Part shown: positions 1 through 61,002 of the stretch, one piece after another
Layout of the letters: each line of letters begins with the position of its first letter
Position numbering within the stretch: position 1 is the first letter of the stretch
Assembly (NCBI GenBank): GCA_944380295.1
Contig: CALWHE010000006.1
Coordinates: forward strand, 11,670-75,669
Direction: 5' to 3'
DNA length: 64,000 nucleotides
Source: an uncultured Christensenellaceae bacterium
GTDB lineage: Bacteria; Bacillota; Clostridia; Christensenellales; UBA3700
Notes under the pieces: model-generated
Told to the model about the DNA's origin: nothing
What the model saw: the letters and a program-made list of their open reading frames with translations, nothing else
Database searches by the model: none
Translations under genes and position numbers: made by a program

Positions 1-262
1 TGTTTGTTTATGATGGTAATTATGCTGGACAGATGTCTATAAGGGTGCGCGGAAGGGCGATGGATTTGCGTGCGGATTTGGACAAAGGTGCCGCAGGCAA
101 TACTTGTTGTATTGTCAAGGCGCATTTGTGCAAAGGCGTGCGTAAAGACGCGCCCTACTGCGTGCCCGCATAGCGTCTGTCCGGCAGAGAAAAATATCAC
201 GTCCTGCGCCGCCGAACATTTTTGTCGCTTTTCACTTTTGTTCGGCGGCGCAGGACATTTCT
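1..262 (+). repeat. Mosaic repeat: rod-hairpin module E (25..184) plus hairpin module H4 (201..256). The window starts inside the element.
   Basis: Nearly identical to 13060..13320 and 60745..60995. Inverted arms are ctggacagatgtctat / atagcgtctgtccgg. H4 is an 18-bp perfect stem, GTCCTGCGCCGCCGAACA / TGTTCGGCGGCGCAGGAC. Confidence 0.85.
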
Positions 263-2879: not shown

Positions 2880-3478
2880 TGTCCTGCGCGGCACGGGCAG
2901 CGCGGGGCTGCACCCCTTATATACTCCGCAATAACGGGAAATCTTGACGCGGCAAACATCTTCGCAAAAACGCAAATTAGCGCAAGTGTGTTCGACGGCT
3001 CAGGACGCGATATTTTTCTCTGCCGGACAGACGCTATGCGGGCAGCGTGACGCTGCCCGCGCTTTATTGCACTTTGCCGTGTAAGTATTGCGAAAAGATC
3101 AGCCGGAAAGACGAACAAGTTACTTCAAGGCATATAATGGGTGCAGCGGCACGCTGCCCGCCACGCACGACGAGCGCGGAGCTGTATCGTCTTTCTGTCG
3201 CTCTTGCTATGTTTTATAACACTTTATTTAATGTGCCCACAGCACCGCCACGCACGACGAGCGCGGAGCTGTATCGTCGTGCATTTCACGTGCCCTCTCG
3301 TCGCTTGCGGTTTGAGGGCACATTTCACGTTTTTGCCAACTCGTTGGCAAAAACATTTCACTTTTCGGCAGAGGAAACGCGGCGCTTACGCAACCGCTAT
3401 ATCTGCCGAAAAATTTCACGTCCGAAGCGGCACGGCACCCTTTTGCTTATCGTTCATTGCCGTGCCGCGCAGGACATT
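2880..3478 (+). repeat. Mosaic intergenic repeat region: truncated E arm, P2 palindromes, F module, one heptamer-hairpin cassette
   Basis: P2 at about 3045..3062 and 3139..3160. Cassette at about 3246..3475 with ATTTCAC at about 3283, 3320, 3355 and 3412. Shares long blocks with 12460..12800 and 45520..45968. Confidence 0.85.
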
Positions 3479-3981: not shown

Positions 3982-4059
3982 CTCTTCTCCTTTGCCGCAC
4001 GGCGGCTTTATCGGTTTGGTTTTTTTGCTATATGTTCAAAGCGCCTGCCGGCGCATTCC

Positions 4060-4540
4060 CCTTGCGGCTTTTGCCCTGCCGCGACCGGCATGCGGATAAG
4101 CGCTCCCCGGCGCAAGTCTTGTCTTACTTGCGGCAGAACGGTTTGCCACCCACGCGCTCCCCCTGCGGCTTTTGCCCTGCCGCGACCGGCATGCGGATAA
4201 GCGCTCCCCGGTGCAAGTCCGCTTATTTGCGGCAGGACGGCTTGCCACCCGCGCGCGCCCCCTGCGGCTTTTGCCCTGCCGCGACCGGCATGCGGATAAG
4301 CGCTCCCCGGCGCAAGTCTTGTCTTACTTGCGGCAGGACGGCTTGCCACCCGTGCGCCCCCTGCGGCTTTTGCCTGATGTCACCGGCATGCGGATAAGCG
4401 CTCCCCGGCGCAAGTCTTGTCTTACTTGCGGCAGGACGGCTTGCCACCCGTGCGCCCCCTGCGGCTTTTGCCCTGCCGCGACCGGCATGCGGATAAGCGC
4501 TCCCTGGTGCAAGTCTTGTCTTACTTGCAGCGTTCGGGCA
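4060..4540. repeat. Tandem array, about 98 bp x 5
   Basis: Unit ccctgcggcttttgccctgccgcgaccggcatgcggataagcgctccccggcgcaagtcttgtcttacttgcggcaggacggcttgccaccc... starts at about 4060, 4162, 4260, 4358 and 4456. Internal hairpin CGCAAGT n8 ACTTGCG. Confidence 0.9.
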
Positions 4541-4757
4541 TAAAAAGCTCCGCGCCGCCATCTGCCGGCGCCGCGCGCTTGCGTTTTGCATGAAACTCTT
4601 TTGAACTCCGCGGGATCCGCCGCGCAAACAGACCTCTCGGCGGGCTTTAAGTCCCCGCCGCGGCGGCGCTTCAAACCGCCGTTTGCGCCCTTCCTTTTTC
4701 CACACTTCCATTGTATCATACAAAACTCCGGTTTTCAAGATTAGAGTGCAAAAAATT

Positions 4758-4771
4758 TGAACATTTGTTCG
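4758..4771. promoter_or_regulatory. Candidate LexA (Cheo/SOS) box
   Basis: TGAACATTTGTTCG contains GAAC-N4-GTTC, compared with the Firmicute consensus CGAACNNNNGTTCG. It sits in an AT-rich gap. Confidence 0.35.
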
Positions 4772-4944
4772 CATTTTTCTCAAATTTATCGCACTTCAAC
4801 GCAATATGTATGTCATATTAAGTGAAAATCATGCGAACATACGGTAAAATCATCGAATGATTTTATTATGTTATGTTTTATATGTATCGCCGCTCCTGTC
4901 CCTTTTCCGCCGCCCTGCCGCCTCTTCATTTGCTTTTTTGCCGT

Positions 4945-5205
4945 TCAGCCGCCCTTCTCCGTCTGTTGCGCCGCTCCTGCCGTTGCGCATTATGCCGCCC
5001 GCCCTGCCGCTTGCTCTTTATCGCCGCCCTTCTCCGTCCGCTTGCGCTATCCCTGCCGTTGCGCATTATACCGCCCGTCCTGCCGCCTGCTCTTCTCCGC
5101 CGCCCTTCTCCGTCCGATTGCGCTATCCCTGCCCGTTGCGCATTATACCGCCCGCTCTTCTCCGCCGTTCCGCCACTTCTGTTTTTATCCGCCGCGCCGC
5201 ATTGT
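4945..5205. repeat. Degenerate tandem repeat, about 76 bp x 3-4, pyrimidine-rich on the plus strand
   Basis: Recurring gccgcccttctccgtc..gcgct.tccctgccgttgcgcattataccgcccg.cctgccgc. The frame-changing period explains the three overlapping spurious ORFs listed here. Confidence 0.8.
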
Positions 5206-5293
5206 CCGCCATTTTTCTCTTCCTGCCGCCTGTCCGTTCGGCTTTTTTGCCTCAACGCTTTGCCCGCGCGCGATTTTGTGTTATAATGATCTT

Positions 5294-6355
5294 ATGTTGA
5301 AAAGCGGCGAATTGCAAGTTAAAGATTTTTCCGTGTCATACTTCGGTTACGGACAAAAGGTGCGCGGCGTGGAATTTTCACTCCGAGAAGGCGAAGTGAT
5401 GTGCCTTTTGGGCGAGGAAGGCTGCGGCAAAACTTCACTCATGCGCGGGCTTGCCGGCTTGGAAGAGGTTGGCGGCAGCGTGACTTTGGGCGGAGTTGAC
5501 TTTTTGCGCCTGCCGCTCAAAGAACGCGAAGTGTGTTATACCTTCGGCGCGGACAGCTTGGACAAAAAAAAGACGGTGGCGCAAAACATAGTCAAGCCGC
5601 TGGTGCTGCGCGGCGCGGACGAGCGCTATATCAAACAGCGCCTGCAATATGCCGCCGAGCTGATGGACTTGGAGAACATCTTGCCGGAAAAGGTCAAGGG
5701 TCTGCCGCCTTATTATTTGGCAAAAACAATTTTGGCGCGCGCCTTTGTGCGCCCCACCGATCTGCTTTTATTGGACGATCTGCCCGCGCAGCTCTCCTAT
5801 TCCCAGCGCGAGCGGGTGTTCAACCGCATGCGCCTTGCCTGCGCCCGGGCGGGCGGACGGATCATATATGCCACCCAGCGCCCGGAAGAGGCGGAAGGCT
5901 TTCCGCACAAGGTGGGCGTGATGAGCGAAGGCGCCCTTGTCCAATGCGCGCCCATGCGCGATATATACAAATTCCCCGCTCATAGGGCGGCTGCCGAGAT
6001 ATTCAAACGCGACTTCACCCTGCTTCCCGCCACCGCGCGGCTGAACGGCGAATGGCTGGTGGAAGCGTGCGGGAGCAAGCTGCCCTGCCCGCCCCTGCTC
6101 AACAAGATCTATGACGGCAGGCAGGTCATCGCCTGCGTGCGCCGCGAGGACGTGAGCGTGGGCGGCGGCATTACCGCCAAAGTGCTGGGCGCATACGACT
6201 GCGGCAGAGAGCGCTTTTTGCGCCTGGGCGTGCCCGGCGGCATTATCTATTGCAATGCCGAAGCGCCCGTCGGTTCGGAAATATCCGTTTCCGTCAGCCG
6301 CGCCGCCTTTGTCTTTGACGCCGCCTCCGGCTATAACATCGCCGCGCGCGACTGA
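5294..6355 (+). CDS. MalK/UgpC-like ABC ATPase with degenerate catalytic motifs and a TOBE-like C-terminus; orphan
   Basis: Walker A GEEGCGKTS is present. LPPYY replaces the LSGGQ signature, Walker B reads LLLLDDL with no catalytic Glu, and ATQR replaces the H-loop. No permease or binding-protein gene is adjacent. ATG 5294 lies 6 nt after TATAAT. Confidence 0.75.
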   Translation: MLKSGELQVKDFSVSYFGYGQKVRGVEFSLREGEVMCLLGEEGCGKTSLMRGLAGLEEVGGSVTLGGVDFLRLPLKEREVCYTFGADSLDKKKTVAQNIVKPLVLRGADERYIKQRLQYAAELMDLENILPEKVKGLPPYYLAKTILARAFVRPTDLLLLDDLPAQLSYSQRERVFNRMRLACARAGGRIIYATQRPEEAEGFPHKVGVMSEGALVQCAPMRDIYKFPAHRAAAEIFKRDFTLLPATARLNGEWLVEACGSKLPCPPLLNKIYDGRQVIACVRREDVSVGGGITAKVLGAYDCGRERFLRLGVPGGIIYCNAEAPVGSEISVSVSRAAFVFDAASGYNIAARD

Positions 6356-6419
6356 AAAGCGCCCGTATCCGCCCGCGCCGCAAGCGCTCTTTTCTCCGCC
6401 CCGCCCTTTCCGCTCGCTC

Positions 6420-8035: not shown

Positions 8036-8160
8036 ATCAGCGGCTGGGGGTGCCTCCGAGGAGGCTGAGAGAGTCCCTTTGAACTTGGTCAAGGTAATTC
8101 TTGCGAAAGGAAGCAAAATCGGAAATGTTTTCTTAAAGTTCCTTCAGCCGAAGGAGTTTT
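8036..8160 (+). ncRNA. TPP (THI-box) riboswitch with expression platform
   Basis: ctgggggtgcc..ggCTGAGAgagtccctttGAACttGgtCaaggTAATtcttGCGaaAGGAAgc matches the THI-box core. Downstream hairpin TCCTTC agcc GAAGGA plus T7 sequesters the GGAG RBS just before ATG 8164 of a thiamine transporter. Confidence 0.85.
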
Positions 8161-8163
8161 TTT

Positions 8164-9300
8164 ATGTTCAACGCTTTGTTATGCGCCGCCGAGTATGTGA
8201 ATTTTTTCAACTTCGATTCCCTGCTCGGCACCACCGTGTGCGTGGGTCTTATCCTGATGGGCGCGGCAATACTTGCCAACCTCATCGTGTTTTTCGCCGC
8301 CCGCAGTAAATTTAAGCTCTCCGTGCTTGTGAGCGTGCTGCTCGTGCTGCTTTACCTGATCGTGGTCATCATTCTCAATATCCGCGACACGGCAAAAGAC
8401 GGCGGCTTTGAGTCGGGCAACACCGGTATGAGCGAGGAAGACGAAAACGGCATCGTCATATTCAACACCTCAAACGCCGTGTGGATCTCCGTGGCGGTGA
8501 TCGTGGTATTCGGCGCGCTCATCGCCCTGCTGCTCATCGACCGTAAAAAAGTTTCGCCGCGCGCCCACACCCTGGCCGTGGTTTACGCCGCGCTCTCCGT
8601 GGCGCTGGGCACGGGACTTTCTTACCTGAAAATGTTCGACGCCCCTTACGGCGGCTCCATCACCCTCTTCGGCTTGCTGCCCATCGCCCTCTATTCCTAT
8701 ATGTTCGGCGTGCGCCGCGGCACGCTGGCGGGCTTTATCTACGGGCTTTTGCAGCTGTTGCAGGGACCTAACATCCTGCACCCCGCGCAATTCTTCCTGG
8801 ACTATATCATCCCCTTTGCCGTGGTGGGCGCCTGCGGCGGCGTTTTCCGCCCGCTTACGGAGCGCTCCAAGCTCTCCCCCGTCCTCAAAGGCGTGGTGGG
8901 ACTTTCAAGCGGCATTGTGCTGGGCATTTTGCTGCGCTATCTCTTCCACGTCATCTCCGGCGCGGTCTTCTTCGGCGAATACGCGGGCGAATACGGCTTT
9001 GACAACGCCTGGGCTTACTCCGCCGCTTACAACGCCCTCTACGTGTTCCCCGACGGCGCCATCTGCCTCTTCGGCGGACTGCTGCTCATGCTCAGCTCTT
9101 CCTTCCGCGGACAGACTGACAGGGTGACGGCGGCGTTCAGAAAGAGCGCGGCAAAGCCCGCCTTTGCGGCGCAGACGGCAGGAGCGGAAGCTCCCGCGCA
9201 GGAAAACGCGCCCGCCGCACAGGCGCAGGACAACGCACAGCCCGCGCAAGAGGCGCAGGAAAACGCCGCCGCAGAAGATCGGGATCGGAACGCGCGCTGA
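8164..9300 (+). CDS. thiT: Thiamine transporter ThiT (ECF S-component) with an extra N-terminal TM region and a low-complexity C-terminal tail
   Basis: Residues about 145-300 match ThiT/YuaJ-type sequence (YGGSITL, LDYIIPF, FFGEYA, AYN..Y..P). About 140 extra N-terminal residues with TM helices. Ala/Gln/Glu-rich tail. TPP riboswitch upstream. Confidence 0.8.
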   Translation: MFNALLCAAEYVNFFNFDSLLGTTVCVGLILMGAAILANLIVFFAARSKFKLSVLVSVLLVLLYLIVVIILNIRDTAKDGGFESGNTGMSEEDENGIVIFNTSNAVWISVAVIVVFGALIALLLIDRKKVSPRAHTLAVVYAALSVALGTGLSYLKMFDAPYGGSITLFGLLPIALYSYMFGVRRGTLAGFIYGLLQLLQGPNILHPAQFFLDYIIPFAVVGACGGVFRPLTERSKLSPVLKGVVGLSSGIVLGILLRYLFHVISGAVFFGEYAGEYGFDNAWAYSAAYNALYVFPDGAICLFGGLLLMLSSSFRGQTDRVTAAFRKSAAKPAFAAQTAGAEAPAQENAPAAQAQDNAQPAQEAQENAAAEDRDRNAR

Positions 9301-9542: not shown

Positions 9543-9640
9543 GCAATGTTTTTCCGCAAATTCGCCGCACTTTTTTAGCGATTTTCGGCGATTTTTCTTT
9601 TACGGAAAATGCTTTGTATATGTTTATTATTTTGATTTTT

Positions 9641-9770
9641 CGGCAAGTTGGCGGGATTTTGTTCGGCAAGTTGGCGGGATTTTGTTCGGCAAGTTGGCGG
9701 GATTTCGTTCGGCAAGTTGGCGTGATTTCGTTCGGCAAGTTGGCGGGATTTCGTTCGGCAAGTCGGCAAA
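9641..9770. repeat. 23-bp tandem repeat, five full copies plus a partial sixth
   Basis: CGGCAAGTTGGCGGGATTT(T/C)GTT at 9641, 9664, 9687, 9710 and 9733, with a partial copy at 9756. Confidence 0.9.
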
Positions 9771-9875
9771 GGCGCGCTTTGTTTTGGCGGCGGCGCGCGG
9801 CGGGCGAAAAATTCGCGCGGGCAAAGCGTTGCCGTTTATTTGTGTTTTTTTCTTTTGCGTGTTATAATCGTTAGT

Positions 9876-12124: not shown

Positions 12125-13335
12125 AAAGAGAAAAAGGATAAGGCGGGTCCCGTTTTCAACGGGATCTGCCTTTTCCTCTTTCGCTTCCTGAAAGACAACC
12201 CCGGCATTCGCAATCGACATAATCATTCCAATATACTTTTATTCAGGGTGCAGCGTCACGCTGCCTCCGCCCCCTACACCGTGAAATCGATTGCTTGAGC
12301 CGCGGTTTTCTCTCTTTTTGCGGAACACGATATCGCATATCGCGCTTGGTCTTGCCGCAAAAATTCACTCTTTCCGCCCTCATTCGCTCCGCGCGCTCCG
12401 CTCATTCGGAAAATGCGCACGGCGCATTTTAGAGGTAACGCTTGGCAAAAGTGTGATTTTGCCGCGCTTTATTACACTTTGCTACGGAAGCATTACGAAG
12501 AGATTAGCCGGATAAACGAACAAGTGACTTCAAGGCATATAATGGGTGCAGCGGCACGCTGCCCGCCACGTCCGCGATGCGCCGTGCTATGCACGGCAGT
12601 ATGAGCGGACATTTCACGTGCCCTCTCGTCGCTTTGCGGTTTGATGGCACATTTCACGTTTTTGCCAACTCGTTGGCAAAAACATTTCACTTTTCGGCAG
12701 AAAAAACGCGGCGCTTGCGCAACCGCTATATCTGCCGAAAAATTTCACGTCCGTAGCGGCACGGCACACTTTCGTTTATAGATTTTGCCGTGCCGCGCAG
12801 GACATAAAGGGGTGGAGCGCCCCGCGCTCCGGGCGCAGCATTATATTCTAATAACGCCGCAGGCAGCCGCCACGCACGACGAGCGCGGAGCTGTATCGTC
12901 GTGCATTTCACGTGCCCTCTCTGTGAGCGCGCAAGTTCTTCACATTGCGGTCACATATGATCGGGGTGCAGCGTCACGCTGCTTTGAGGGCACATTTCAC
13001 GTTTTTGCCAAGGTGTTGGCAAAAACATTTCACTTTTGCGCGGTTGGCATATCATATATGTTTGTCTATGATGATAATTATGCCGGACAGACGTCTATAA
13101 GGGTGCGCAGGAGAGTGATGGATTTGCGTGCGGATTTGGACAAATGTGCCGCAGGCAATACTTGTTGTATTGTCAAGGCGCATTTGTGCAAAGGCGTGCG
13201 TAAAGACGCGCCCTACTGCGTGCCCGCATAGCGTCTGTCCGGCAGAGAAAAATATCACGTCCGGAGCAAGGGCACATTTCTTCGCTTATCGCTCATTGTG
13301 CCCTTGCGCAGGACATAAAGCGCTCCTGCCCGCTT
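12125..13335 (+). repeat. Mosaic intergenic repeat region: module L, then two heptamer-hairpin cassettes, the second carrying module E
   Basis: L at 12125..12565. Cassettes at 12565..12803 and 12805..13315. ATTTCAC at about 12610, 12650, 12685, 12742, 12903, 12990 and 13030. E at 13083..13242. Confidence 0.9.
12142..12182. terminator. Bidirectional terminator-like hairpin at the start of repeat module L
   Basis: GGCGGGTCCCGTT ttc AACGGGATCTGCC followed by a T-rich run and preceded by an A-rich run. The same hairpin module follows the aminotransferase gene (about 29430..29470) and rnj (about 36960..37010). Confidence 0.7.
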
Positions 13336-17549: not shown

Positions 17550-18645
17550 AACAGGGTGCAGCGTCACGCTGCCCGCCGCGCTTTTATAGTGCTTTATTAA
17601 GTATTGCGAAGAGATACGCTTACTACCACTTCCCGCCTCTGCGAAGCATATCAGAGTGCAGCGTCACGCTGCCCGCGCTTTTATTGCACTTTATCAAGTA
17701 TTGCAGGGAATAACGCTTACTACCACTTCCCGCCTCTGCGAAGCATATCAGGGTGCAGCGGCACGCTGCCCGCACCTTCCCGGCACGGCGATAAGCGCCG
17801 TTTCTATCTGTATATTATCGGACAAGCGGCTTTGACAATGTCCGGGAACAGGGCGAAAAAACGCCGTGCTGCGAAAGTGCAAAGAGTGGCACCTCGGAGT
17901 AAAGCATAGTTTTTGCGCAGCATAACAAGGGGTGGAGCGCCCCGCGCTCCGGGTGCAGCGTTATACTCGAATAGCGCCGCAGGTAGCCATCACGCACGAC
18001 GAGCGCGGAGCTGTATCGTCGTGCATTTCACGTGCCCTCTCGTCGCTTGCGGTTTGAGGGCACATTTCACGTTTTTGCCAACTCGTTGGCAAAAACATTT
18101 CACTTTTGCGCAGCAGTATATGTTCGCTTATCGCTCACTTATATCTGCGCAAAAATTTCACGTCCGCAGCCGCCGAACATAGCTTTCGCTTATTGATTTT
18201 GTTCGGCGGCGCAGGACATAAAGGGGTGGAGCGCCCAGCGCTCCTCTACTTATATTATAACACGGAAAACCGCGGTTTTTGAGATGAGAGTGCAAAATTT
18301 TTTTTGCAAAACCACAAAAAACCTTCCCCATAGGCGGCAATTTTGCCTCGCGCGACGCGCGTTATATCTTTTTTCTTTTTCTTGTTTTTTCTCTTTTTCT
18401 TCGACTTTTGCTTTATCTTTCTCTTCTTTGAAGAAAAAGAAAAGGGGGGTTTGGGGGGAAAGGAAAAGGAGCGTGACGGGAGCGCGGGGCGGCAGCGTGA
18501 CGGGAGCGCGGGGCGCTCCACCCCCTGTTATGCTTCGCAGAGATAAACCATGATCGCGGAGCGTTTCTCTTCACAAAACCAATATTTGTTTGCGGCAGAA
18601 TGCCGATAAGCGCGGCTCTTCCCACAAGCGGCATATGCGGTTCGG
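17550..18645 (+). repeat. Mosaic intergenic repeat region
   Basis: P2 palindrome plus about 75 nt repeated with a 97-100 nt period at 17552, 17652 and 17749. Cassette at 17929..18217 with four ATTTCAC. P1 boxes at about 17929, 18222 and 18500. Pyrimidine/purine tract at 18365..18475. Confidence 0.9.
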
Positions 18646-21040: not shown

Positions 21041-22701
21041 GAAAGTATTGCTCCTTTGTCCGCGCTGCTGACCATGGCGGCATAGCGTTTGAGCCATTTG
21101 CCGGGGATCTCTTTTTGCGGGCACACCCATTTGGCTCTGCGCGCGGCAAGCTCTCGATCCGAAACGCGCAGGTGCACTTTGTATTGCGGGATATTTATCT
21201 CTATGATGTCGCCTTCCTCGATGAGCGCGAACTCGCCGCCAGCCGCCGCTTCCGGGGAAACGTGACCTATGCTGGCGCCCCTGCTGGCGCCGGAGAATCT
21301 GCCGTCTGTGATGAGCGCCACGCTCTTGTCCAGTCCCATGCCGGCAAGCGCCGAAGTGGGATTGAGCATTTCACGCATGCCCGGTCCGCCCTTGGGACCT
21401 TCATATTTGATCACCACCACGTCGCCGGGGTTGATTTTTCCTGCGTATATGGCGGTTATCGCCTCATCCTCGCCGTTGAACACGCGCGCTTTGCCCTCAT
21501 GCACCAGCATTTCCGGCGCCACGGCGCTGCGCTTGACCACGCAGCCGTTTTTGGCGATGTTGCCAAAGAGTATAGCAAGTCCGCCCGTTTTGGTGTAAGG
21601 GTCTTCCAGCGGGCGTATCGCCTTTTGCACGGCGGAGAGCTTGACGCCTTTGAGGTTTTCCGCCACCGTTTTGCCCGTGACCGTTTGGCAGCCGCCGTCC
21701 AAAAAGCCGCCGCGCAGCAGTTCGGAGAGCACCGCCTGCACGCCGCCGGCAAAATAGAGGTCCTGGATATGCGTGGGACCCGCGGGCGCCAGGTGGCAGA
21801 GGTTGGGCGTTTTTTCGCTTATTTCGTTAAAGATGTTGAGGTCGAGCTTGACTCCCGCTTCGTGCGCGATCGCCAAAAGGTGCAGCACGGAGTTGGAAGA
21901 ACAGCCCAAAGCCATGTCGCAGGTGACGGCGTTGCGGATGGAACGCTCGTTGATGATGTCGCGGGCGGTGATGTTTTTGTTCACCATCTCCACGATCGCC
22001 GCGCCGGCGTGCTTGGCGAGAATGATCCTCTCGCTGAACACGGCGGGAACGGTGCCGTTGCCGGGCAGCGCGATGCCGATGGCTTCGCACAGGCAGTTCA
22101 TGGAGTTTGCCGTATACATGCCCGCGCAGGAACCGCAGCCGGGGCAGCAACGCGCGGTGATGTCGTCAAGCTGCTTATCGTCGATAAGTCCTGCTTTGCG
22201 CGCGCCCACCGATTCGAACATTTTAGACAGGGAAACTTCCTCTCCGCACACATTGCCCGCCAGCATGGGACCGCCGCTGACCACCACCGCGGGCAAATCG
22301 AGCCTGCACGCCGCCATGACCATGCCGGGCACTATCTTGTCGCAGTTGGGCACCAGCACCATGCCGTCGAAGAGGTGCGCGTTGACCATGGTCTCCACGC
22401 TGTCTGCGATCAGCTCGCGTGAAGGCAGCGAATATTTCATGCCGATGTGACCCATGGCAATGCCGTCGCATACGCCGATCGCCGGCACGAGCACGGGAGT
22501 GCCGCCCGCCGCGGATACGCCCGCCTTGACCGCGTTTGCTATCTTGTCCAAATTGATGTGACCGGGCACTATCTCGCTGAACGCGGAAACCACGGCGATG
22601 AGGGGCTTTTTCAGCTCCTCGTCGGAAAAGCCGCACGCCTTTAACAGCGAACGCTGGGGGGCGCTTTCCGCCCTATCGGTAAAATAACTGCTTCTTAACA
22701 T
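21037..22701 (-). CDS. ilvD: Dihydroxy-acid dehydratase
   Basis: Full-length IlvD/Edd pattern ([39 protein letters not shown]). GGAGGA RBS. Confidence 0.97.
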
Positions 22702-22721
22702 CGGTATCCTCCATTATGTCC

Positions 22722-23590
22722 TGCGCAAGGGCACAATGAGCGATAAGCGAACTTGTGCGCCCTTGCTTCGGACGTGAAATTTTTGCGCGGATATATGCGA
22801 GCGGCAAGCGAGCATAACTGCCGCGCAAAAGTGAAATGTTTTTGCTTTATAAAGCAAAAACGTGAAATGTGCTCTTAAACCGCTCCGCGACGAAAGAGCA
22901 CGTGAAATGTCCGCTCATACTGCCTCGCAAGGCGAGCCGCATCGCGGACGTGGCGGCTGCCTGCGGCGCTATTAGAATATAATGCTGCACCCGGAGCGCG
23001 GGGCGCTCCACCCCTGATCGTGCCTTGAAGTAACTTTCCCGTCTGTCCGGCTGACCTCTTCGCAACTCTTACACAATATAGTGTAATAAAGCGCGGCAAA
23101 ATCGCACTTTTGCCAAGCGTCACCTCTAAAATGCGCCGTGCGCATTTTCCGAGTGAGCGGAGCGCGCGGAGCGGCAGCGTGCCGGGAGCGGCAGCGTGCC
23201 GGGAGCGCGGGGCGCTCCACCCCTGATCGTGCCTTGAAGTCACTTTCCCGTCTGTCCGGCTGACCTCTTCGCAACTCTTACACAGTAAAGTGTAATAAAG
23301 CGCGGGCAGCGTGCCGGGAGCGCGGGGCGCTCCACCCCTGATCGTGCCTTGAAGTCACTTTTCCGTCTGTCCGGCTGACCTCTTCGCAATGCTTACACAA
23401 TAAAGTGTAATAAAGCGCGGGCAGCGTGACGCTGCACCCTGGTAAGTGTAATATCCCGCCGTCCAAAACCGCGCTTTTGGACGAGCGCACCTTGGGCAAG
23501 GCGACTGCCTTGCGCGCCGCTCCCGCGGCGGCGGAAAGGGGTGAAGTTTTGCGGCTAACGCTTGCGCGCTTTCTTATATCTTGCCGCAAA
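22722..23590 (-). repeat. Mosaic repeat region between ilvC and ilvD
   Basis: Cassette at 22726..23014, with GTGAAAT on the plus strand at about 22770, 22830, 22862 and 22902. Three tandem F modules, each ending in a P1 or P2 box, at 23015..23445. Module G at 23450..23530. Confidence 0.9.
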
Positions 23591-28439: not shown

Positions 28440-29482
28440 TGATAACATAAGCGCGCGTGTATGTCAAGAAAGCAGAATTATGTCCTGCACAAGGGCGCAA
28501 TGAGCGATAAGCGAAGAAATGCGCCCTTGCTCCGGACGTGAAATTTTTGCGCAGATATAAGTGAGCGGTAAGCGAACATAACTTCCGCGCAAAAGTGAAA
28601 TGTTTTTGCCAACTCGTTGTCAAAAACGTGAAATGTGCCCTCAAACCGCAGAGCGACGAGAGAGCACGTGAAATGTTTGCTCATACTGCCGCAAAGCGGC
28701 GCATCGCAAACGTGGCGGCTGCCTGCGGCGCTATTAGAGTATAATGCTGCACCCGGAGCGCGGGGCGGTCCACCCCTTTATGTCCTGCGCCGCCAAACAA
28801 GAGTGAAAAGCGACAAAAATGTTTGGCGGCTCCGGACGTGAAATTTTTGCGCAGATATAAATAAGCGGTAAGCGAACGTATAATGCTGCGCAAAAGTGAA
28901 ATGTTTTTGCCTCGCAAGGCAAAAACGTGAAATGTGCCCTCAAACCGCAAGCGACGAGAGGGCACGTGAAATGTTTGCTCATACTGCCGCAAAGCGGCGC
29001 ATCGCAAACGTGGCGGCTGCCTGCGGCACTATTAGAATATAATGCTGCACCGGAGCGCGGGGCGCTCCACCCCTTACACGCCTTGACGTCACTTTTCTGT
29101 ATTTTCAGCCAATCGCTTTGCAATACCTACCCAATTAAGTGTAATAAAGCGCGGCAAAATCACATTTTTGCCAAGCGTCACCTCAAAAATGCGCCGTGCG
29201 CATTTTCCGAATGAGCGGAGCACGCGAAGCGAATGAGGGCGGAAAGAGTGAATTTTTGCGGCACGACCAAGCGCGCCACGAGATTACGCCGCCCGCAAAA
29301 AGAGAGAAAACCGCGGCTCAAGCAATCGAATCCGCGGCAAAGTGGCGGAGGCAGCGCGGTGCTGAACTCTAAATAAAATTATATTGGAATGATAATGTCG
29401 ATTGCGAATGCCGGGGTTGTCTTTCGGGAAGCGAAAAATGAAAGGGCAGTTTCCGTTGTAAACGAAAACCGCCCTATCCCTT
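28440..29482 (-). repeat. Mosaic repeat region: two head-to-tail heptamer-hairpin cassettes plus module L
   Basis: Cassettes at 28478..28776 and 28778..29073. L at about 29075..29482, ending in the terminator hairpin next to the aminotransferase stop. Confidence 0.92.
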
Positions 29483-36069: not shown

Positions 36070-37030
36070 CGCTCTTATTATAGCAATTCTCCGCGAACAA
36101 GTAAAGGGAGTGCGGGGCGGGCAGCGTGACGCTGCACGCTTTATGTCCTGCGCAAGGGCGCAATGAGCGATAAGCGAAGAAATGCGCCCTTGCTCCGGAC
36201 GTGATATATTTTGCCGTGACAGACATATGAAATAAGCGTAAAAACACCAAACGGCAAAATGCGATATGTCGGCTACGCCGACGCGATATGTCCTGCGCGG
36301 CACGGCAAAGTCAATAAGCAAAAGTGTGCCGTGCCGCTCCGGACGCGATATTTTTGCGCGGATATATGTGAGCGGCAAGCGAACATAACTTCCGCGCAAA
36401 AGCGAAATGTTTTTGCCTTGCAAGGCAAAAACGTGAAATGTGCTCTTAAACCGCTCCGCGACGAAAGAGCACGTGAAATGTTTGCTCATACTGCCACAAA
36501 GCGGCGCATCGCAAACGTGGCGGCTGCCTGCGGCGCTATTAGAGTATAATACTGCACCCCTAATAAAGTGTAATAAAGCGCAGCAAAATCGCACTTTTGC
36601 CAAGCGTCACCTCTAAAATGCGCCGTGCGCATTTTCCGAATGAGCGGAGCGCGCGGAGCGGCAGCGTGACGCTGCACCCTGATAAATATAATATACCGCC
36701 GTCCAAAACCGCGCTTTTGGACGAGCGCACCTTGGGCAAGGCGACTGCCTTGCGCGCCGCTTCGCGGCGGCGGAAAGAGTGAATTTTTGCGGTAAGACCA
36801 AGCGCGATACGAGATTACGCCGCCCGCAAAAAGAGAGAAAACCGCGGCTCAAGCAACCGATTTCACGGCAAAGTGGCGGAGGCAGCGTGATGCTGCACCA
36901 CAATTAAAAGTATATTGGGAATGATAATATCGATTGCGAATGCCGGGGTTGTCTTTCGAGAAGCGAAAGAGGAAAAGGCAGTTCCCGTTTGTAACGGGAA
37001 AAGCCTTATCCTTTTTCTCTTTCGCTTATT
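36070..37030 (-). repeat. Mosaic repeat region between rnj and the methyltransferase gene
   Basis: Degenerate cassette at 36141..36560, with heptamer variants GTGATAT, GCGATAT and GCGAAAT as well as GTGAAAT at 36433 and 36473. Module G at about 36690..36765. Module L at about 36560..37030 with its terminator hairpin next to the rnj stop. Confidence 0.9.
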
Positions 37031-45109: not shown

Positions 45110-45968
45110 TTAAATATTATTTACGAATTTTGCGGATACTCCGCCGCGAATATTATATCATCAACCGGGCAAAAAAGTAAACAAAATAAACGTGGTTTCT
45201 GCCCCTGCCGCAAAGCGGCGTATCGCAAACGTGACGGGCAGCGTGCCGCTGCACCCGGAGCGCGGGGCGCTCCGCCCCTTACACGCCTTGACGTTGCTTT
45301 TCCGTTTGTTCTGCTAATCTCTTCGCAATACTTCCATATCAAAGTGTAATAAAGCGCGGCAAAATCGGCAATGTTACGCTGTCTTGCGCGCCGGCTGTTT
45401 TGGACGGCGGGAAGTCACACTTTTAAGACTATGCGATGCAAAGAGATGAAGTAAGTAATGTAAATGAAGTTACTTCAAGGCGTATAAGAGTGCAGCATGT
45501 TTCTGTCGCTCTTGCCACGCTCTATTACACTTTATTAAGAGCGAGTATTGCAAAAAGATCAGACGGAAAGACGAACAAGTTACTTCAAGGCTTGATCAGG
45601 GGTGGAGCGCCCCGCGCTCCGGGTGCAGCGTCACGCTGCCGCCCCGCGCTCCCCGCCACGCACGACGAGCGCGGAGCTGTATCGTTTTTCTGTCGCTCTT
45701 GCTATGTTTTATCGCATTTTATTTAATGTGCCCACAGCACCGCCACGCACGACGAGCGCGGAGCTGTATCGTCGTGCATTTCACGTGCCCTCTCGTCGCT
45801 TTGCGGTTTGAGGGCACATTTCACGTTTTTGCCTTGCAAGGCAAAAACATTTCACTTTTGCGCGGAAGTTATGCTCGCTTTCCGCTCACATATATCCGCG
45901 CAAAAATTTCACGTCCGGAGCCGCCAAACATTTTTGTCGCTTTTCACTCTTCTTTGGCGGCGCAGGAC
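45110..45968 (+). repeat. Mosaic repeat region between pckG and clpC; its last hairpin overlaps the clpC 3' end
   Basis: P1/P2 boxes at about 45228..45275 and 45599..45660. F module at about 45500..45600. Cassette at about 45640..45968 with four ATTTCAC. Confidence 0.9.
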
Positions 45969-48487
45969 ACCTTAAATCCCCCGTCTTTGACGGTGAGTTC
46001 GACGCTGTCGCCCTCTTTGATCTCGCCGGCGAGCAGCTTTTCCGAGAGCATGTCTTCCACATTGCGCTGGACGGCGCGGCGCAGAGGTCTGGCGCCGTAT
46101 TCCTTGTTATAGCCCTTTTCTATCAGCAGATCGCACGCCGCCTCGTCAAAGGTGAAGGTGATGTTGCGCTCTTTGAGGCGCTTTGCAACATCGTTCAGCA
46201 TCTTGGTGCAGATGGTGCGCATATCCGCCTTTTCCAGGCTGCGGAAGATGATGATATCGTCTATGCGGTTGATGAATTCGGGCTTGAAAGCGTCTTTGAG
46301 CGCCTGCATCTGCCTGTCTCTCACGTTTTCGTAATCCTGCTCTGCGGAGCCGAAGCCCAGGCGGGAATTTTTTATCTCCCCCGCGCCAATGTTGGAGGTC
46401 ATGATGATGATGGTGTTTTTGAAGTTGACCTCCCTGCCGTGCGAGTCTTTGAGGTGACCGTCGTCCAGCACCTGCAAAAGCACGTTGAACACGTCCGGGT
46501 GCGCCTTTTCTATCTCGTCGAACAAGATGACGGAATAAGGATGGCGGCGCACTTTTTCCGTGAGCTGACCGCCCTCGTCGTAACCCACGTAGCCGGGCGC
46601 GGAACCGATGAGTTTGGACACGTTGAACTTTTCCATATATTCGGACATATCCACGCGTATCATCAGGTTTTCGTCGCCGAACATTGCCTCCGCCAGGGCT
46701 TTGGAAAGCTCCGTCTTGCCCACGCCGGTGGGACCCAGGAAGATGAACGAACCTATCGGGCGGCGGCGGTCCTGCACGCCGGCGCGGGCGCGGCGCACCG
46801 CTCTTGCCACGGCGGACACCGCCTCGTCCTGTCCGATCACGCGCTTGCGCAGCTCCTCTTCCAGGTGCAGAAGTTTGGACGATTCGCTCTCCGTCAGCTT
46901 GGCGACGGGAATGGACGTGGTGAGCGACACCACTTCCGCAATGTCCTTATCGTCGATGGCAAGCTCCGTCTGCGCCTTGTCGCTGCCCCACTTTTTCTTG
47001 CCTTCCGCAATTTGGGCGTTCAGCTTCTTGATCTTGTCGTCTATCTCCGCGCACTTGGCGTATTCGCGCCTGTCCACGTGGTTTTTCAGCTCTATGTTCA
47101 GCTTGTTCACCTCTTCTTCCATGTCCTTGATGGGCTGAGGCAGCACAAAGTTGGACACCTTCTTTTTCGCCATCGCCTCGTCTATGAGGTCGATCGCCTT
47201 ATCGGGCAAAAATCTGTCCGATATATACCTGTCTGAGAGCACGGCGGCGGCTTCTATGGCGGAGTCGGATATCTTCACGTTGTGGAACTTTTCGTATTTG
47301 GAGCGCAAACCTTTGAGAATGGTCTGCGTTTCCTCCACCGTGGGCGGCTCCACCATGATGGGCTGCAACCTGCGCTCCAAAGCGGCGTCTTTTTCTATAT
47401 ATTTGGTATACTCGGCGATGGTGGTGGCGCCTATTGTCTGCAACTCTCCGCGCGCCAAAAGCGGCTTTAAGATGTTTGCCATATCCAAAGAACTGTCACC
47501 GGAAGCGCCCGCACCCACGATGAGGTGAATTTCGTCGATGAAGAGAATGATGTTGGAGTCCGATTTGATGAAATCGAGCAGTTTTTTCATCCTCTCTTCA
47601 AACTCGCCGCGGTATTTGGTGCCCGCCATCAGCCCCGCCACGTCCAGGGAAAAGATGGTCTTGCCACGCAGTGTTTCCGGCACTTCGCCCGCCACGATGG
47701 CTTGCGCCAATCCTTCCACAATGGCGCTCTTGCCCACGCCCGGCTCGCCGATGAGCACGGGATTGTTTTTGGTGCGGCGGGAGAGCACTTCTATTATCCT
47801 GTCTATCTCCTTGCTCCTGCCGATGACGGGGTCCAGCTTGCCCTCGCGCGCCTTTTGCGTGATGTCCGTGCCCAGCTTTTCCATCTCCTTGGAGATGCCG
47901 CCCTTGCGCGGCTTTTCCGCCTCGCGTTCGCCGCCGCGCGCTCTCGGACGGGGATCATCGCCCACCAAGCGCCGCTCGAACATGCGGCGCATCTCATCGA
48001 ACGGATCGAGCTCCTCTTCGTCGTCTTCGTCTTCGTCCTCGCCAAAGTTCATATTGCCGGGCGAATCGATGTTGAGCACGAGCCGCCTTGCCTTGTCGCG
48101 CAGCTCGTTCACGTCCACGCCCAAAGCCATCAGCTTTTGCACGGCGTAAGAATCGCGCATGTTAAGCACGCCGAACAGCAAAAGCGCGGAATTTATCTCG
48201 CCGCCCTCCGTGTTGTTTGCCGCCGCGGCGCACCAGTCCAGCACCTTGCGCGTGCGGTCGGACAGCCGCACTTTGTCGAGCGGCGTTTCTCTGTCTGCAT
48301 TGACAAAATCGGGCACGTTGCCCTGCGAGAGCGAATATTCCTGCAAAAGCGGACGCGCAAAACAGTCCACGCCCAGCATGGCGGCAAGGAAAAACTCCGT
48401 GCCCAGCAGACCCGCGCTCGTGTGTGCGGCAAGTTTACCTGCCGCCGTTACCACTCTGTTACACTCTTCCGTAAAATTATAATCCAT
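45944..48487 (-). CDS. clpC: ATP-dependent Clp protease ATP-binding subunit ClpC
   Basis: Clp N-domain repeats, two AAA modules ([16 protein letters not shown]), a UVR-like middle domain. Start trimmed to ATG 48487 (MDYNFTEE) after GGAGGAAG. Downstream of mcsB. Confidence 0.95.
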
Positions 48488-50514: not shown

Positions 50515-51000
50515 CCGCCCTTGCGCCGCCTTTTTGTCCGCCTTGCGCTTTGCCCCGCCTGGCTTTTGCCCTAGCTTTGCTTTCCGTTCCGCTTGGCTCT
50601 TGCTCTGCGCTCCGGCTTGGCTTTCGCTCTTGCGTTACGCTCATGCTTGGCTTTTGCCCTGCGTTGCGTTCTGCCCGGCTCTTGCCCTGCGTTGTATTCC
50701 GCTCCGCTTTGGCTTTTGCTCTTGCGTTCCGTTCGGCTCTTGCTTTGCTTTGCGTTCCGCTTGGTCTTTGCCTCGCGTTGCGTTCCGCCCGGCTCTTGCC
50801 CTGCGTTGTATTCCGCTCCGCTTTGGCTTTTGCTCTTGCGTTCCGTTCGGCTCTTGCTTTGCGTTCCGCTTGGTCTTTGCCTCGCGTTGCGCTCCGCCCG
50901 GCTCTTGCTCTGCGTTTCCGCCCCGCTCTTACCTTACATTGCGTTCCGCTTGGTCTTTTCGGTCGTCCGACAGCTCCCTTTGCCTTGTCGCGTTTTTTCG
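50515..51000. repeat. About 490 nt of degenerate tandem repeats between the CtsR-box promoter and ctsR
   Basis: About 110-nt unit seen twice nearly intact at about 50660..50770 and 50771..50880. Shorter gcgttccgcttgg(c/t)ctt.gc-type subrepeats occur throughout. T/C-rich on plus, purine-rich on the transcribed strand. Confidence 0.85.
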
Positions 51001-54419: not shown

Positions 54420-55190
54420 AAATGTAAAATACGAATTATGTCCTGCGCGTCGGCTGTTTCGGACGGTGGCAGCGTGACGCTGCACCCTTGATATGCTTCG
54501 CAGCAGCGTGACGCTGCACCCTTTATATGCTTCTCAGCAGCGTGACGCTGCACCCTTTATATGCTTCTCAGTGCCGGAACCGTCGGTTATCGAGGCTCTT
54601 CGCACTGGTATTTGTCGGGTATATGATGATACTAATGGCGGGCAGGCGCTGTTAAGGGCGCGCGGCTGTATCGACTTTCTGTCGCTCTTACTATGTTTAT
54701 AACATTTAATTTGATGTGCCCACAGCACCGCAACGTCCGCGATGCGCCGTGCTATGCACGGCAGTATGAGCGGGCATTTCACGTGCCCTCTCGTCGCTTG
54801 CGGTTTGAGGGCACATTTCACGTTTTTGCCAACTCGTTGGCAAAAACATTTCACTTTTGCGCGGTTGTCATATTTCATGTGTTTGTTTATGATGACAATT
54901 ATGCCGGACAGACGTCTATAAGGGTGCGCAGAAGGGCGATGGATTTGCGTGCAGGTTTGGACGGCGGGGACGCGGCAATACTTGCCCGGTTTATAACGAT
55001 ACGCTGTTTCCAATAACTATTAATGCCGGGCAGGCGCTGTTAAGGACATGCGGGAGGGCGATGGATTTGCGTGCAGGTTTGGACGGCGGGGACGCAGGTA
55101 ATACTCTTGCGGTATTATCAAGTCCCCGCCGTTCAAAGATGTGCGTAAAGCCGCGCCCTACCGCGTGCCCTTAACAGCGCCTGTCCGGCA
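54420..55190 (+). repeat. Mosaic repeat region between ppdK and recO; overlaps the recO 3' end
   Basis: Three tandem P2 units at 54469..54571. Truncated cassette with ATTTCAC at about 54775, 54815 and 54850. Half E copy from 54904. Variant E copy at 55026..55189. Confidence 0.9.
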
Positions 55191-60179: not shown

Positions 60180-60995
60180 CATATGCGGAAGGGGAAAAGG
60201 TTATGTCCTGCGGCAGCGTGACGCTGCACCCTTTATGTCCTGCGCAAGGGCGCAATGAGCGATAAGCGAAAGTATGCGCCCTTGCTCCGGACGTGAAATT
60301 TTTGCGCGGACAGCGTGCCGCTGCACCCCGATATACTCCGTAGCTGCAAAAAAGCAACCACTCAACACAACACTTCGCACATATATGATATTGCGATAAG
60401 CGAACATAACTTCCGCGCAAAAGCGATATGTCGGCTGCGCCGACGCGATATGTCCTGCGCCGCCAAACAAAAGCGAAAAGCGATAAAAATGTTTGGCGGC
60501 TTCGGACGCGATATATTTTGCCGTAACAAACGTATTGAGTAACCGCACTGTATCGAACTGCAAAATGTAAAGGCTGCCTGCGGCGCTGTTTGAAATTGCA
60601 AAGGCAGCGTGGCGCTGCACCCCTTATGCGCTTCGCAGCAATGTAAAATACCGATAAGCGTTACTCTTCGCAACAACAATATGTGATTTGCGGCAAAATG
60701 CCGCAAGATACCGCCGCATTTTGCCGTTTGGCACATCTTATGTGTTTGTTTATGATGGTAATTATGCTGGACAGATGTCTATAAGGGTGCGCGGAAGGGC
60801 GATGGATTTGCGTGCGGATTTGGACAAAGGTGCCGCAGGCAATACTTGTTGTATTGTCAAGGCGCATTTGTGCAAAGGCGTGCGTAAAGACGCGCCCTGC
60901 TGCGTGCCCGCATAGCGTCTGTCCGGCAGAGAAAAATATCGCGTCCAGAGCAAGGGCGCACAAGTTCGCTTATCGCTCATTGCGCCCTTGCGCAG
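60180..60995. repeat. Mosaic repeat region between dnaB and yqfC, with mixed orientations
   Basis: P2 at about 60210, 60310 and 60600. Minus-oriented H4 and H3 modules with GCGATAT-type heptamers at 60222..60530. Plus-oriented E (60767..60926) and H4 (about 60940..60992) ending 10 nt before the dnaB stop. Confidence 0.9.
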
Positions 60996-61002
60996 GACAC
61001 TC

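Follow-up and report, generated by a model that had tools for sequence, protein, structure and literature searches.

The bcr1 repeats of the Bacillus cereus group, ∼155 bp in length, are reported to be transcribed and to undergo compensatory changes that keep their RNA structure, and their distribution is not conserved between close strains (PMC3184786). The ERIC elements of enterobacteria and the Correia (NEMIS) elements of Neisseria are imperfect intergenic palindromes of 100 to 160 bp that act at the RNA level (described in part in PMC3184786). Repetitive extragenic palindromes (REPs) are 20 to 40 nt long and carry a GTAG or CGTC tag (PMC3733652), and Gut-1, an orphan RNA candidate, has been seen in human gut metagenomes only (Weinberg et al. 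2010; PMC2864571). Here, we describe module E, a repeat that folds into a rod-like hairpin and recurs in the intergenic spacers of a 64,000-nucleotide chromosomal stretch, referred to as the window, from an uncultured Clostridia bacterium (contig CALWHE010000006.1, positions 11,670 to 75,669). The window carries housekeeping genes (pgi, an MMPL transporter gene, ilvBCD, der, the gene for RNase J, pckA, a clpC-like gene, ppdK, recO, era, ybeY, yqfD, and dnaB), and its spacers are unusually long (0.7 to 1.3 kb) and packed with repeated modules, of which E is one.

On balance, we lean toward reading E as a mosaic repeat, scattered over the intergenic DNA of an uncultured, Christensenellales-like lineage of Clostridia, that specifies a conserved, nearly fully paired, rod-like RNA of ∼160 nt on the plus strand. 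We propose that this RNA would be made from its own promoter or by read-through, that it would have a protein-binding or RNase III-type role, and that the repeat spreads by recombination.

Copies of module E and their fold

Repeat finding, BLAST, and an E-family covariance model agreed on four full copies, one half copy, and one 28-nt 5′ fragment in the window, all on the plus strand; the model retrieved exactly the four full copies, each with plus as the sense strand (Table 1). A first-pass annotation of the same sequence had listed plus-oriented copies at 25, 13083, and 60767, a variant at 55026, and a half copy at 54904, and all were located there, the variant spanning 55026 to 55188. The helices it named are those of the minimum free energy (MFE) fold for the copies at 13083 and 25. 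In the MFE fold, the stem is nearly fully paired over ∼70 bp, with internal loops of only 1 to 2 nt, and the plus-strand folds of 13083-13242 and 25-184 have z-scores near -12 relative to dinucleotide shuffles.

We folded both strands of 19 distinct full-length copies, which came from the window, from ten metagenome contigs encoding an identical DnaB (sister strains L019 to L028), and from two further sequences, L017 and L009. With RNA folding, the sense strand was more stable than its complement by 27 to 45 kcal/mol in 19/19 copies; the first-pass annotation had proposed this comparison, and no copy had strands of equal stability. Copies inverted in their genomes (L019:5718, L021:235, and L028:327) retained the asymmetry on their own sense strand. 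The asymmetry was also found in a remote homologue, L015 (-89.8 [sense] versus -63.8 kcal/mol), and in an E-like hairpin from a related species whose Era is 76% identical (L032:1131-1294; -110.5 [sense] versus -83.2 kcal/mol). Each copy has 8 to 12 G·U pairs and 0 to 1 A·C pairs, which bears out the earlier observation that the mismatches are G-U compatible on one strand only, and the two CTGGACAGATG copies, said to add two wobbles, have 11 G·U pairs versus 9. The GC skew of the E sense strand is +0.12 to +0.23, and that of the plus strand of the window is -0.057. Since the G excess of E runs opposite to the local composition, it is not a local compositional effect, and we ruled out a strand-composition artefact on this basis. 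A coding function for E was likewise ruled out, based on lengths that vary from 159 to 167 nt and on variation that proceeds through compensatory changes of pairs.

Covariation and the conserved core

An alignment of 21 sequences, with a consensus rod of 55 pairs, has standard pairing in 95.5% of its cells and compensatory changes on both sides in 20/55 pairs. None of 500 column shuffles reached these values, and pairing fell to 31 to 60% when the partner was slid by 1 to 3 columns as a control. Several columns run through an A-U, G-U, and G-C series (e.g., column pair 5-169). The first-pass annotation had also suggested looking for strand-asymmetric wobble enrichment across copies, and this enrichment is present: G·U cells outnumber A·C cells 201 to 16 family-wide, and in the Christensenellales set, 20 columns are polymorphic between Watson-Crick and G·U pairs versus 6 for A·C, with three fixed G·U columns and no fixed A·C column (binomial P of ∼0.009 for the column count).

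Conservation of E is highest in an interior core (GGAUUUGCGUG / GCGUAAAG) and in the apical hairpin and lowest at the termini. The core consensus, (U/C)G-GA-UUUGCGUG(C/U) paired with (G)(U/C)GCGUAAA-G(N)-CG, consists of a GA internal loop and the helix UUUGCGUG/GCGUAAA; two of the invariant G·U pairs lie here (Table 1), and the third is located in the apical hairpin AAUAC-loop-GUAUU. The outer arms occur as three interchangeable types within one species, each with a matching 3′ arm, and chimeras occur as well. The outer stems of L015 and L032 are unrelated to these, and L015 and L018 have only the core and apex in common with E. The apical stem is disrupted in 5/21 copies. A tail of the form CA(R)A..AAAAA follows the full-length window-type copies (window, sister strains, and L009) and is not found in L015 or L018.

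Covariation thus backs a fold on one strand, as is generally expected of a structured noncoding RNA. The compensatory changes, the G·U intermediates, the three invariant G·U pairs, and the near absence of A·C pairs show that the fold of E is selected on one strand. The data fit a selected product that is a single-stranded fold of the plus strand, most simply RNA.

Could the asymmetry instead be a mutational by-product, left by a perfect palindrome that decays through a strand-biased C-to-T process with no selection on the fold? Transitions at paired G-C sites would indeed yield G·T on one strand, and the five window copies share one orientation. However, 20 pairs underwent double compensatory changes, three G·U pairs are invariant across lineages with otherwise different stems, inverted copies keep the asymmetry, and the skew in E runs counter to that of the sequence around it. 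This reading was already disfavored, and we consider it highly improbable.

The main rival is a role as a recombinase substrate in single-stranded DNA. E would then be a selfish palindromic DNA repeat, similar to miniature inverted-repeat transposable elements (MITEs), REPs, or bacterial interspersed mosaic elements (BIMEs). Its hairpin would matter in single-stranded DNA (for example, as a substrate of a strand-specific HUH/Y1-type or other recombinase) or as a cruciform, and the wobbles would mark the DNA strand used, with no role for RNA. We regard this explanation as unlikely. The asymmetry does persist under DNA folding parameters (-49.7 versus -37.4 kcal/mol), in agreement with it, but three G·T pairs, two of them invariant, in a single conserved 10-bp helix would be costly in DNA. 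Moreover, known HUH substrates are hairpins of about 20 to 40 nt, whereas E has 160.

Promoter-like leader and putative transcription

A promoter scan placed a promoter-like site, TTG(G/T)CA-17-TATGAT, in the leader of type-1 copies, ending exactly 10 nt before the stem (sites at 13044, 54865, and 60728). Across copies, the hexamers stay constant and the 17-nt spacer changes; in type-3 leaders, a TATAAT or TATGAT lies at this 10-nt distance. A selfish DNA repeat would leave this conserved promoter geometry unexplained. The promoter-bearing leader is present in the recO-ppdK and yqfD-dnaB spacers, where both neighboring genes lie antisense to E. The gene upstream is co-oriented with E at 13083, L019:5718, L032, L009, and L015. 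Judging from gene orientation and leader sequence, every locus examined has a plausible source of sense RNA, either a co-oriented upstream gene or a promoter-like leader.

The window copies have no U-tract after the stem on either strand, where CAGAGAAAAA follows on the plus strand and CAUAAUUAUC on the minus strand, and a terminator scan found no terminator at E. An intrinsic (Rho-independent) terminator was ruled out by this lack; the exception to it is L018, which has UUUUUU after the stem.

The orientation of the neighboring genes bears on another explanation, in which E has no promoter of its own that matters and acts only in cis within neighboring mRNAs, as a stabilizing or processing hairpin in 3′ untranslated and intercistronic regions, in the manner of ERIC, bcr1, and Correia. 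The co-oriented upstream gene at five independent loci is consistent with such action, as are the co-oriented genes that start less than ∼150 nt downstream in five loci, and known repeats of similar size behave in this way (PMC3184786). In the recO-ppdK and yqfD-dnaB spacers, however, the antisense orientation of E to both flanking operons means that read-through would produce the badly folding strand, and these copies nevertheless keep the sense-strand fold and the promoter-like leader. Action solely in cis therefore seems quite unlikely to us.

Cassette context

The window contains about eleven cassettes, each made up of four to five hairpins, designated H0 to H4, with the 7-mer ATTTCAC (GTGAAAT on the opposite strand) between them. 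For seven cassettes, the alignment to the Rfam Gut-1 model (RF01706) covers the full length of the model, at 25.9 to 33.5 bits and on the GUGAAAU strand, opposite to E. The gathering score of the model, which has three hairpins separated by GUGAAAU, is 50, so that these cassettes resemble the motif below threshold and none reaches the at least 50 bits of a family member. In most cassettes, the hairpins fold slightly better on the GUGAAAU strand. Based on the resemblance to Gut-1 on that strand, E is antisense to the presumed RNA of the cassette and not part of the same transcript. The cassettes might place the orphan Gut-1 motif in a genomic context for the first time.

In three window copies, E stands at the place of cassette hairpin H3 and replaces the loop and 3′ stem of the third hairpin, in the order ATTTCAC, orphan 5′ stem TTTTGCGCGG, leader, E, tail, 7-mer, and H4. 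The H3 position assigned to E by the first-pass annotation thus applies to these copies, yet it is not obligatory and holds for only part of the family. The same annotation had E always followed by A(T/A)ATCAC and H4, which proved too strict: the copy at 60767 is followed by ATATCGC, that at 55026 lacks both 7-mer and H4, and copies in L017, L019, and L025 lack H4.

Whether a strain has H4 or not maps to the 7-mers: the window sequence at 60927-61002, ATATCGC-H4-ACTCTCAC, corresponds to a single hybrid ATCTCAC in L019 and L025. From this one clear case, modules look as if they are gained or lost by exchange within the 7-mer. An analogy of the 7-mers with integron attC sites was ruled out; the 7-mers are direct, not inverted, around each hairpin. 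We also observed a REP-like palindrome, GCAGCGTGACGCTGC, within GGGTGCAGCG..CTGC, in tandem with a 34-nt period at 54463-54582. The palindrome occurs additionally at 12245-12265, 12545-12565, 60213-60232, and 60603-60622, and it directly abuts E in L023, L025, and L028.

A bolder interpretation, which we hold to be very doubtful, is that E and the Gut-1-like cassettes form an undescribed system of RNA-hairpin module arrays exchanged at a 7-nt core (AWWTCRC). E would then be a regulatory or mobilizing partner of the orphan Gut-1 RNA, a cassette whose promoter gives rise to a rod-like RNA antisense to the array. The tandem 5′-arm units of two species (described below) would be functional, serving the single 3′ arm as decoys or as alternative partners for pairing, and would not be scars.

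Relatives, strain variation, and mobility

The only named genome found with an E homologue is that of “Candidatus Caccalectryoclostridium excrementigallinarum” (L009), the one real match among 13 pattern matches in a scan of public genome collections. A metagenome scan gave five matches, of which L015, L017, and L018 are real. Three scans of viral contigs yielded chance matches only, and BLAST searches against plasmids and phages found no match to E.

Among strains with identical DnaB, the dnaB-yqfD spacer ranges from 326 to 844 nt. In seven strains, this spacer either holds E (in some cases truncated inside its 3′ arm or lacking H4) or has other modules in its place, and in none of them is the site cleanly empty. 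In sister strains, the full copy in the recO-ppdK spacer is preceded by one to three half copies in tandem (period of ∼122 nt). A comparable array lies at 514-1227 of L032, in which a 144-nt unit composed of an A-rich linker, an E-like 5′ arm, and the 3′ strand of the apex is repeated five times in tandem, and the 3′ arm completes only the last unit. In the L032 species, neither the dnaB-yqfD spacer (85 nt) nor the recO-ppdK spacer (119 nt) contains repeats, and the E-like element lies in a neighboring spacer. In another related species (L035), the spacer downstream of dnaB (4417-6374; 1.96 kb) is filled by unrelated repeats, namely, tandem GGCAACGTGGGACGTTGC palindromes and CTTGTCAAGTACTACTTGACA palindromes. 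The clade seems prone to lineage-specific expansions of intergenic repeats.

The flanks of 25 copies showed no target-site duplication. The 5′ flanks end in ..TAATG, ..TTATG, or ..CTGC, and the 3′ flank is always CA(R)A..AAAAA; L015 and L018 have TA at both ends, possibly as part of the stem. No transposase or integrase gene is present in the 64-kb window. Terminal inverted repeats are not the conserved part of E, as one species has three arm types and the invariant columns are interior. A classical MITE was therefore ruled out, given no target-site duplication, no clean empty site, and termini that are the least conserved part. The finding that the first-pass annotation had named as speaking against an RNA, a MITE with terminal repeats and duplications, accordingly does not apply. 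We observed that the E-like hairpin of L015 (1321-1487) begins 64 nt after the stop codon of a large serine recombinase gene (1-1257; Recombinase, Zn ribbon, and DUF4368 domains), which places it at the edge of an integrative element. L018 has a 95%-similar copy of the L015 element next to a different neighbor, a methyltransferase gene.

Much of this variation could also be explained by a selfish repeat acting in single-stranded DNA. E is multicopy and intergenic, turns over quickly between strains with identical DnaB, and has chimeric arms and truncated copies. It is embedded in hairpin/7-mer arrays in which the presence of H4 maps to hybrid 7-mers, and its L015 relative abuts a large serine recombinase gene. 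In addition, the tandem 5′-half arrays break near the apex in two species, as hairpin-stimulated template switching would give. Against this explanation, an interior that is most conserved and termini that are least conserved are the opposite of what is seen in transposase-recognized elements, and neither a target-site duplication, a clean empty site, nor a transposase or integrase gene in the 64 kb was found.

Proposed mode of action

For an expressed, strand-specific RNA, which we favor, the following course can be proposed. The RNA would arise from the promoter TTG(G/T)CA-17-TAT(G/A)AT of the repeat or by read-through from a co-oriented upstream gene. A start ∼7 nt after TATGAT would leave ∼3 unpaired nucleotides before the stem of ∼70 bp, and the product would be a very stable double-stranded RNA rod with a 5′-terminal stem. 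RNA decay in Firmicutes involves RNase J and depends on the 5′ end; with ∼3 unpaired 5′ nucleotides ahead of a long stem, such an RNA should be long-lived. Its most likely role would be that of a module for protein binding or RNase III-type processing and of a 5′-end protector for whatever is transcribed behind it, and not that of a terminator. We favor such a role since the conserved core and apex resemble a recognition site and E lacks the signature of a terminator. Spread and reshuffling would proceed by recombination within the hairpin/7-mer arrays and not by cut-and-paste transposition.

The first-pass annotation had argued from the wobble asymmetry to a transcribed RNA on the ATTTCAC strand. 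The asymmetry itself, the G·U excess, and the lack of a MITE signature agree with this argument, whereas the step to transcription is less secure, as G·T asymmetry also fits single-stranded DNA and the promoter is a consensus match only. Several observations weigh against an RNA. G·T pairs form in single-stranded DNA too, and hence the asymmetry is not RNA specific. The promoter is a prediction from consensus matching alone, type-2 leaders lack a -10 box and are positioned behind another unit, and the absence of a U-tract 3′ of H4 leaves the 3′ end of the putative RNA undefined. The contexts of E vary (it lies upstream of genes, convergent with genes, or across the recO stop codon), a pattern that fits a repeat better than a dedicated small-RNA gene, and with 5/21 apical stems disrupted, many copies may be inert. 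Finally, the copies are related by descent, so that cell counts overstate the number of independent events, and the covariance-model alignment of L015, L018, and L032 is weak outside the core.

If expressed, E would represent a new structured RNA family of uncultured gut Clostridia, with an invariant, wobble-rich core and an apex that look like a protein-recognition site. It would also provide Gut-1 with a genomic home and a possible antisense partner. The module-bearing spacers differ by hundreds of bases between strains with identical DnaB, so that the modules are useful strain markers and offer a natural experiment on how hairpin repeats arise, are shuffled, and stay foldable.

Other features of the window

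The coordinates of E, its parts, and the surrounding cassettes are collected in Table 1.

Table 1. Positions of module E, its parts, and neighboring cassettes in the window
Feature	Position	Strand	Evidence or remark
E copy, 160-nt rod-like hairpin, type-1 outer arms	13083..13242	+	Fold -100.9 (+) vs -69.0 (-) kcal/mol, z = -12.4; covariance model 178 bits on +, 68 on -
Promoter-like site (sigma-70 type), TTGGCA-17-TATGAT	13044..13072	+	10/12 matches; ends 10 nt before hairpin
Core 5′ strand, U-G-GA-UUUGCGUGCG with GA internal loop	13119..13132	+	Columns G38-G48 invariant in 21 sequences; G·U at 49-126 and 52-123 invariant
Core 3′ strand (CGUGCGUAAAGACG)	13195..13208	+	GCGTAAAG invariant in 21/21 sequences; pairs with 13119-13132
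Apical hairpin GGCAAUAC-UUGUU-GUAUUGUC	13154..13174	+	MFE fold; AAUAC/GUAUU apex kept in L009, L015, L032
A-rich tail CAGAGAAAAA	13243..13252	+	Directly 3′ of hairpin
Orphan 5′ stem of H3 (TTTTGCGCGG)	13034..13043	+	Right after ATTTCAC 13027-13033; judged against intact H3 of other cassettes
7-mer ATATCAC (13252-13258) and hairpin H4 (13259-13314)	13252..13314	+	H4 fold
E copy, CUGGACAGAUG variant, 11 G·U pairs	25..184	+	Fold -100.6 (+) vs -57.4 (-) kcal/mol; covariance model
Flanks of E copy 25..184	TATGAT 9-14; tail 185-194; ATATCAC 194-200; H4 201-256	+	Leader cut by window start
Type-3 leader TTCGCA-17-TATGAT (54599-54627), then 28-nt 5′ fragment of E (54638-54665)	54599..54665	+	
Promoter-like site TTGTCA-17-TATGAT before half copy	54865..54893	+	10/12 matches
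E half copy, 5′ arm as far as apex	54904..54984	+	
Linker with small hairpin (GTTTATAACGATACGC) and leader without -10 box (TTTCCAATAACTATTAATG)	54985..55025	+	
E variant, type-2 arms, different inner helix	55026..55188	+	Fold -127.0 vs -99.5 kcal/mol; model 173.5 bits
Promoter-like site TTGGCA-17-TATGAT	60728..60756	+	10/12 matches
E copy	60767..60926	+	Tail 60927-60936; ATATCGC 60936-60942; H4 60943-60998; convergent with dnaB (61003-62517, - strand)
Cassettes	3238-3475, 12566-12800, 12860-13033, 17980-18220, 22690-22950		
Cassettes, continued	28460-29010, 36120-36480, 45733-45970, 54731-54860, 60207-60520		

The 3′ arm of the variant at 55026..55188 overlaps the last codons and stop of recO, which lies on the opposite (minus) strand (open reading frame end at 55171; overlap 55171-55189). 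RecO has 181 to 184 amino acids in all relatives examined, so the window RecO is not truncated despite this overlap. A phage terminase large-subunit gene (512-1969; Terminase_6N/6C) adjoins the copy at 25..184 and suggests a prophage or remnant at the left edge of the window.

The 3′-end motif of E, CCGTCTGTCCGGC, recurs within a different repeat family (at 23040-23060, 23249-23262, and 23365-23380), indicating that modules share short junction motifs. This other family has three to four copies of ∼150 nt, at 23022-23382, 29080-29231, and 36509-36660. Further tandem repeats occur at 4048-4558 (∼99-nt unit, five times) and 9616-9790 (23-nt unit TTCGGCAAGTTGGCGGGATTTTG, ∼7 times), and at 50565-50996 there is a C/T-rich array whose periods are 28 and 86 nt. 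A YuaJ-type thiamine transporter gene (8164-9300) is preceded by a TPP riboswitch (8036-8128; 62.9 bits).

Comparison with known systems

No family in Rfam 15 matched E at the gathering threshold, and at an E value of ≤10 only chance-level snoRNA and miRNA matches were obtained; the TPP riboswitch was the sole feature of the window to pass. The nearest known kind of element is the 100- to 170-bp intergenic repeat that folds as RNA, represented by bcr1, ERIC, and Correia (PMC3184786).

Of these, bcr1 is like E in its similar size and in being multicopy, intergenic, and found in Firmicutes. It differs in having 5-bp flanking direct repeats and a two-arm, cruciform-like fold, whereas E has no flanking duplication and forms a single rod. 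Three further features set E apart from bcr1: its arm types are interchangeable, its interior core is invariant, and its leader is promoter-like. ERIC and Correia elements act through RNase E or RNase III and mRNA stability, and some carry promoters. Their terminal inverted repeats are conserved and they have TA flanks or duplications; E, in contrast, combines variable termini with a conserved center and has no sequence similarity to them.

The mosaics formed by REP/BIME and Neisseria NIME clusters recall the E modules in being joined at short conserved motifs, filling long spacers, and being reshuffled between strains, but E, unlike REPs, is 160 nt long and has no GTAG or CGTC tag. 6S RNA is likewise a rod-like RNA, of about 160 to 190 nt, with closing and terminal stems, and is encoded by one or two genes per genome. 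A 6S-like RNA was ruled out, as E has no large central bubble, gives no Rfam 6S match even at an E value of ≤10, and is multicopy. The likeness to Gut-1 (RF01706) resides in the surrounding cassettes, whose hairpins are separated by GUGAAAU; E itself does not match Gut-1 and lies on the opposite strand. Taken together, E differs from known repeats in its invariant interior core, its modular arms, its promoter-bearing leader, and its embedding in Gut-1-like arrays.

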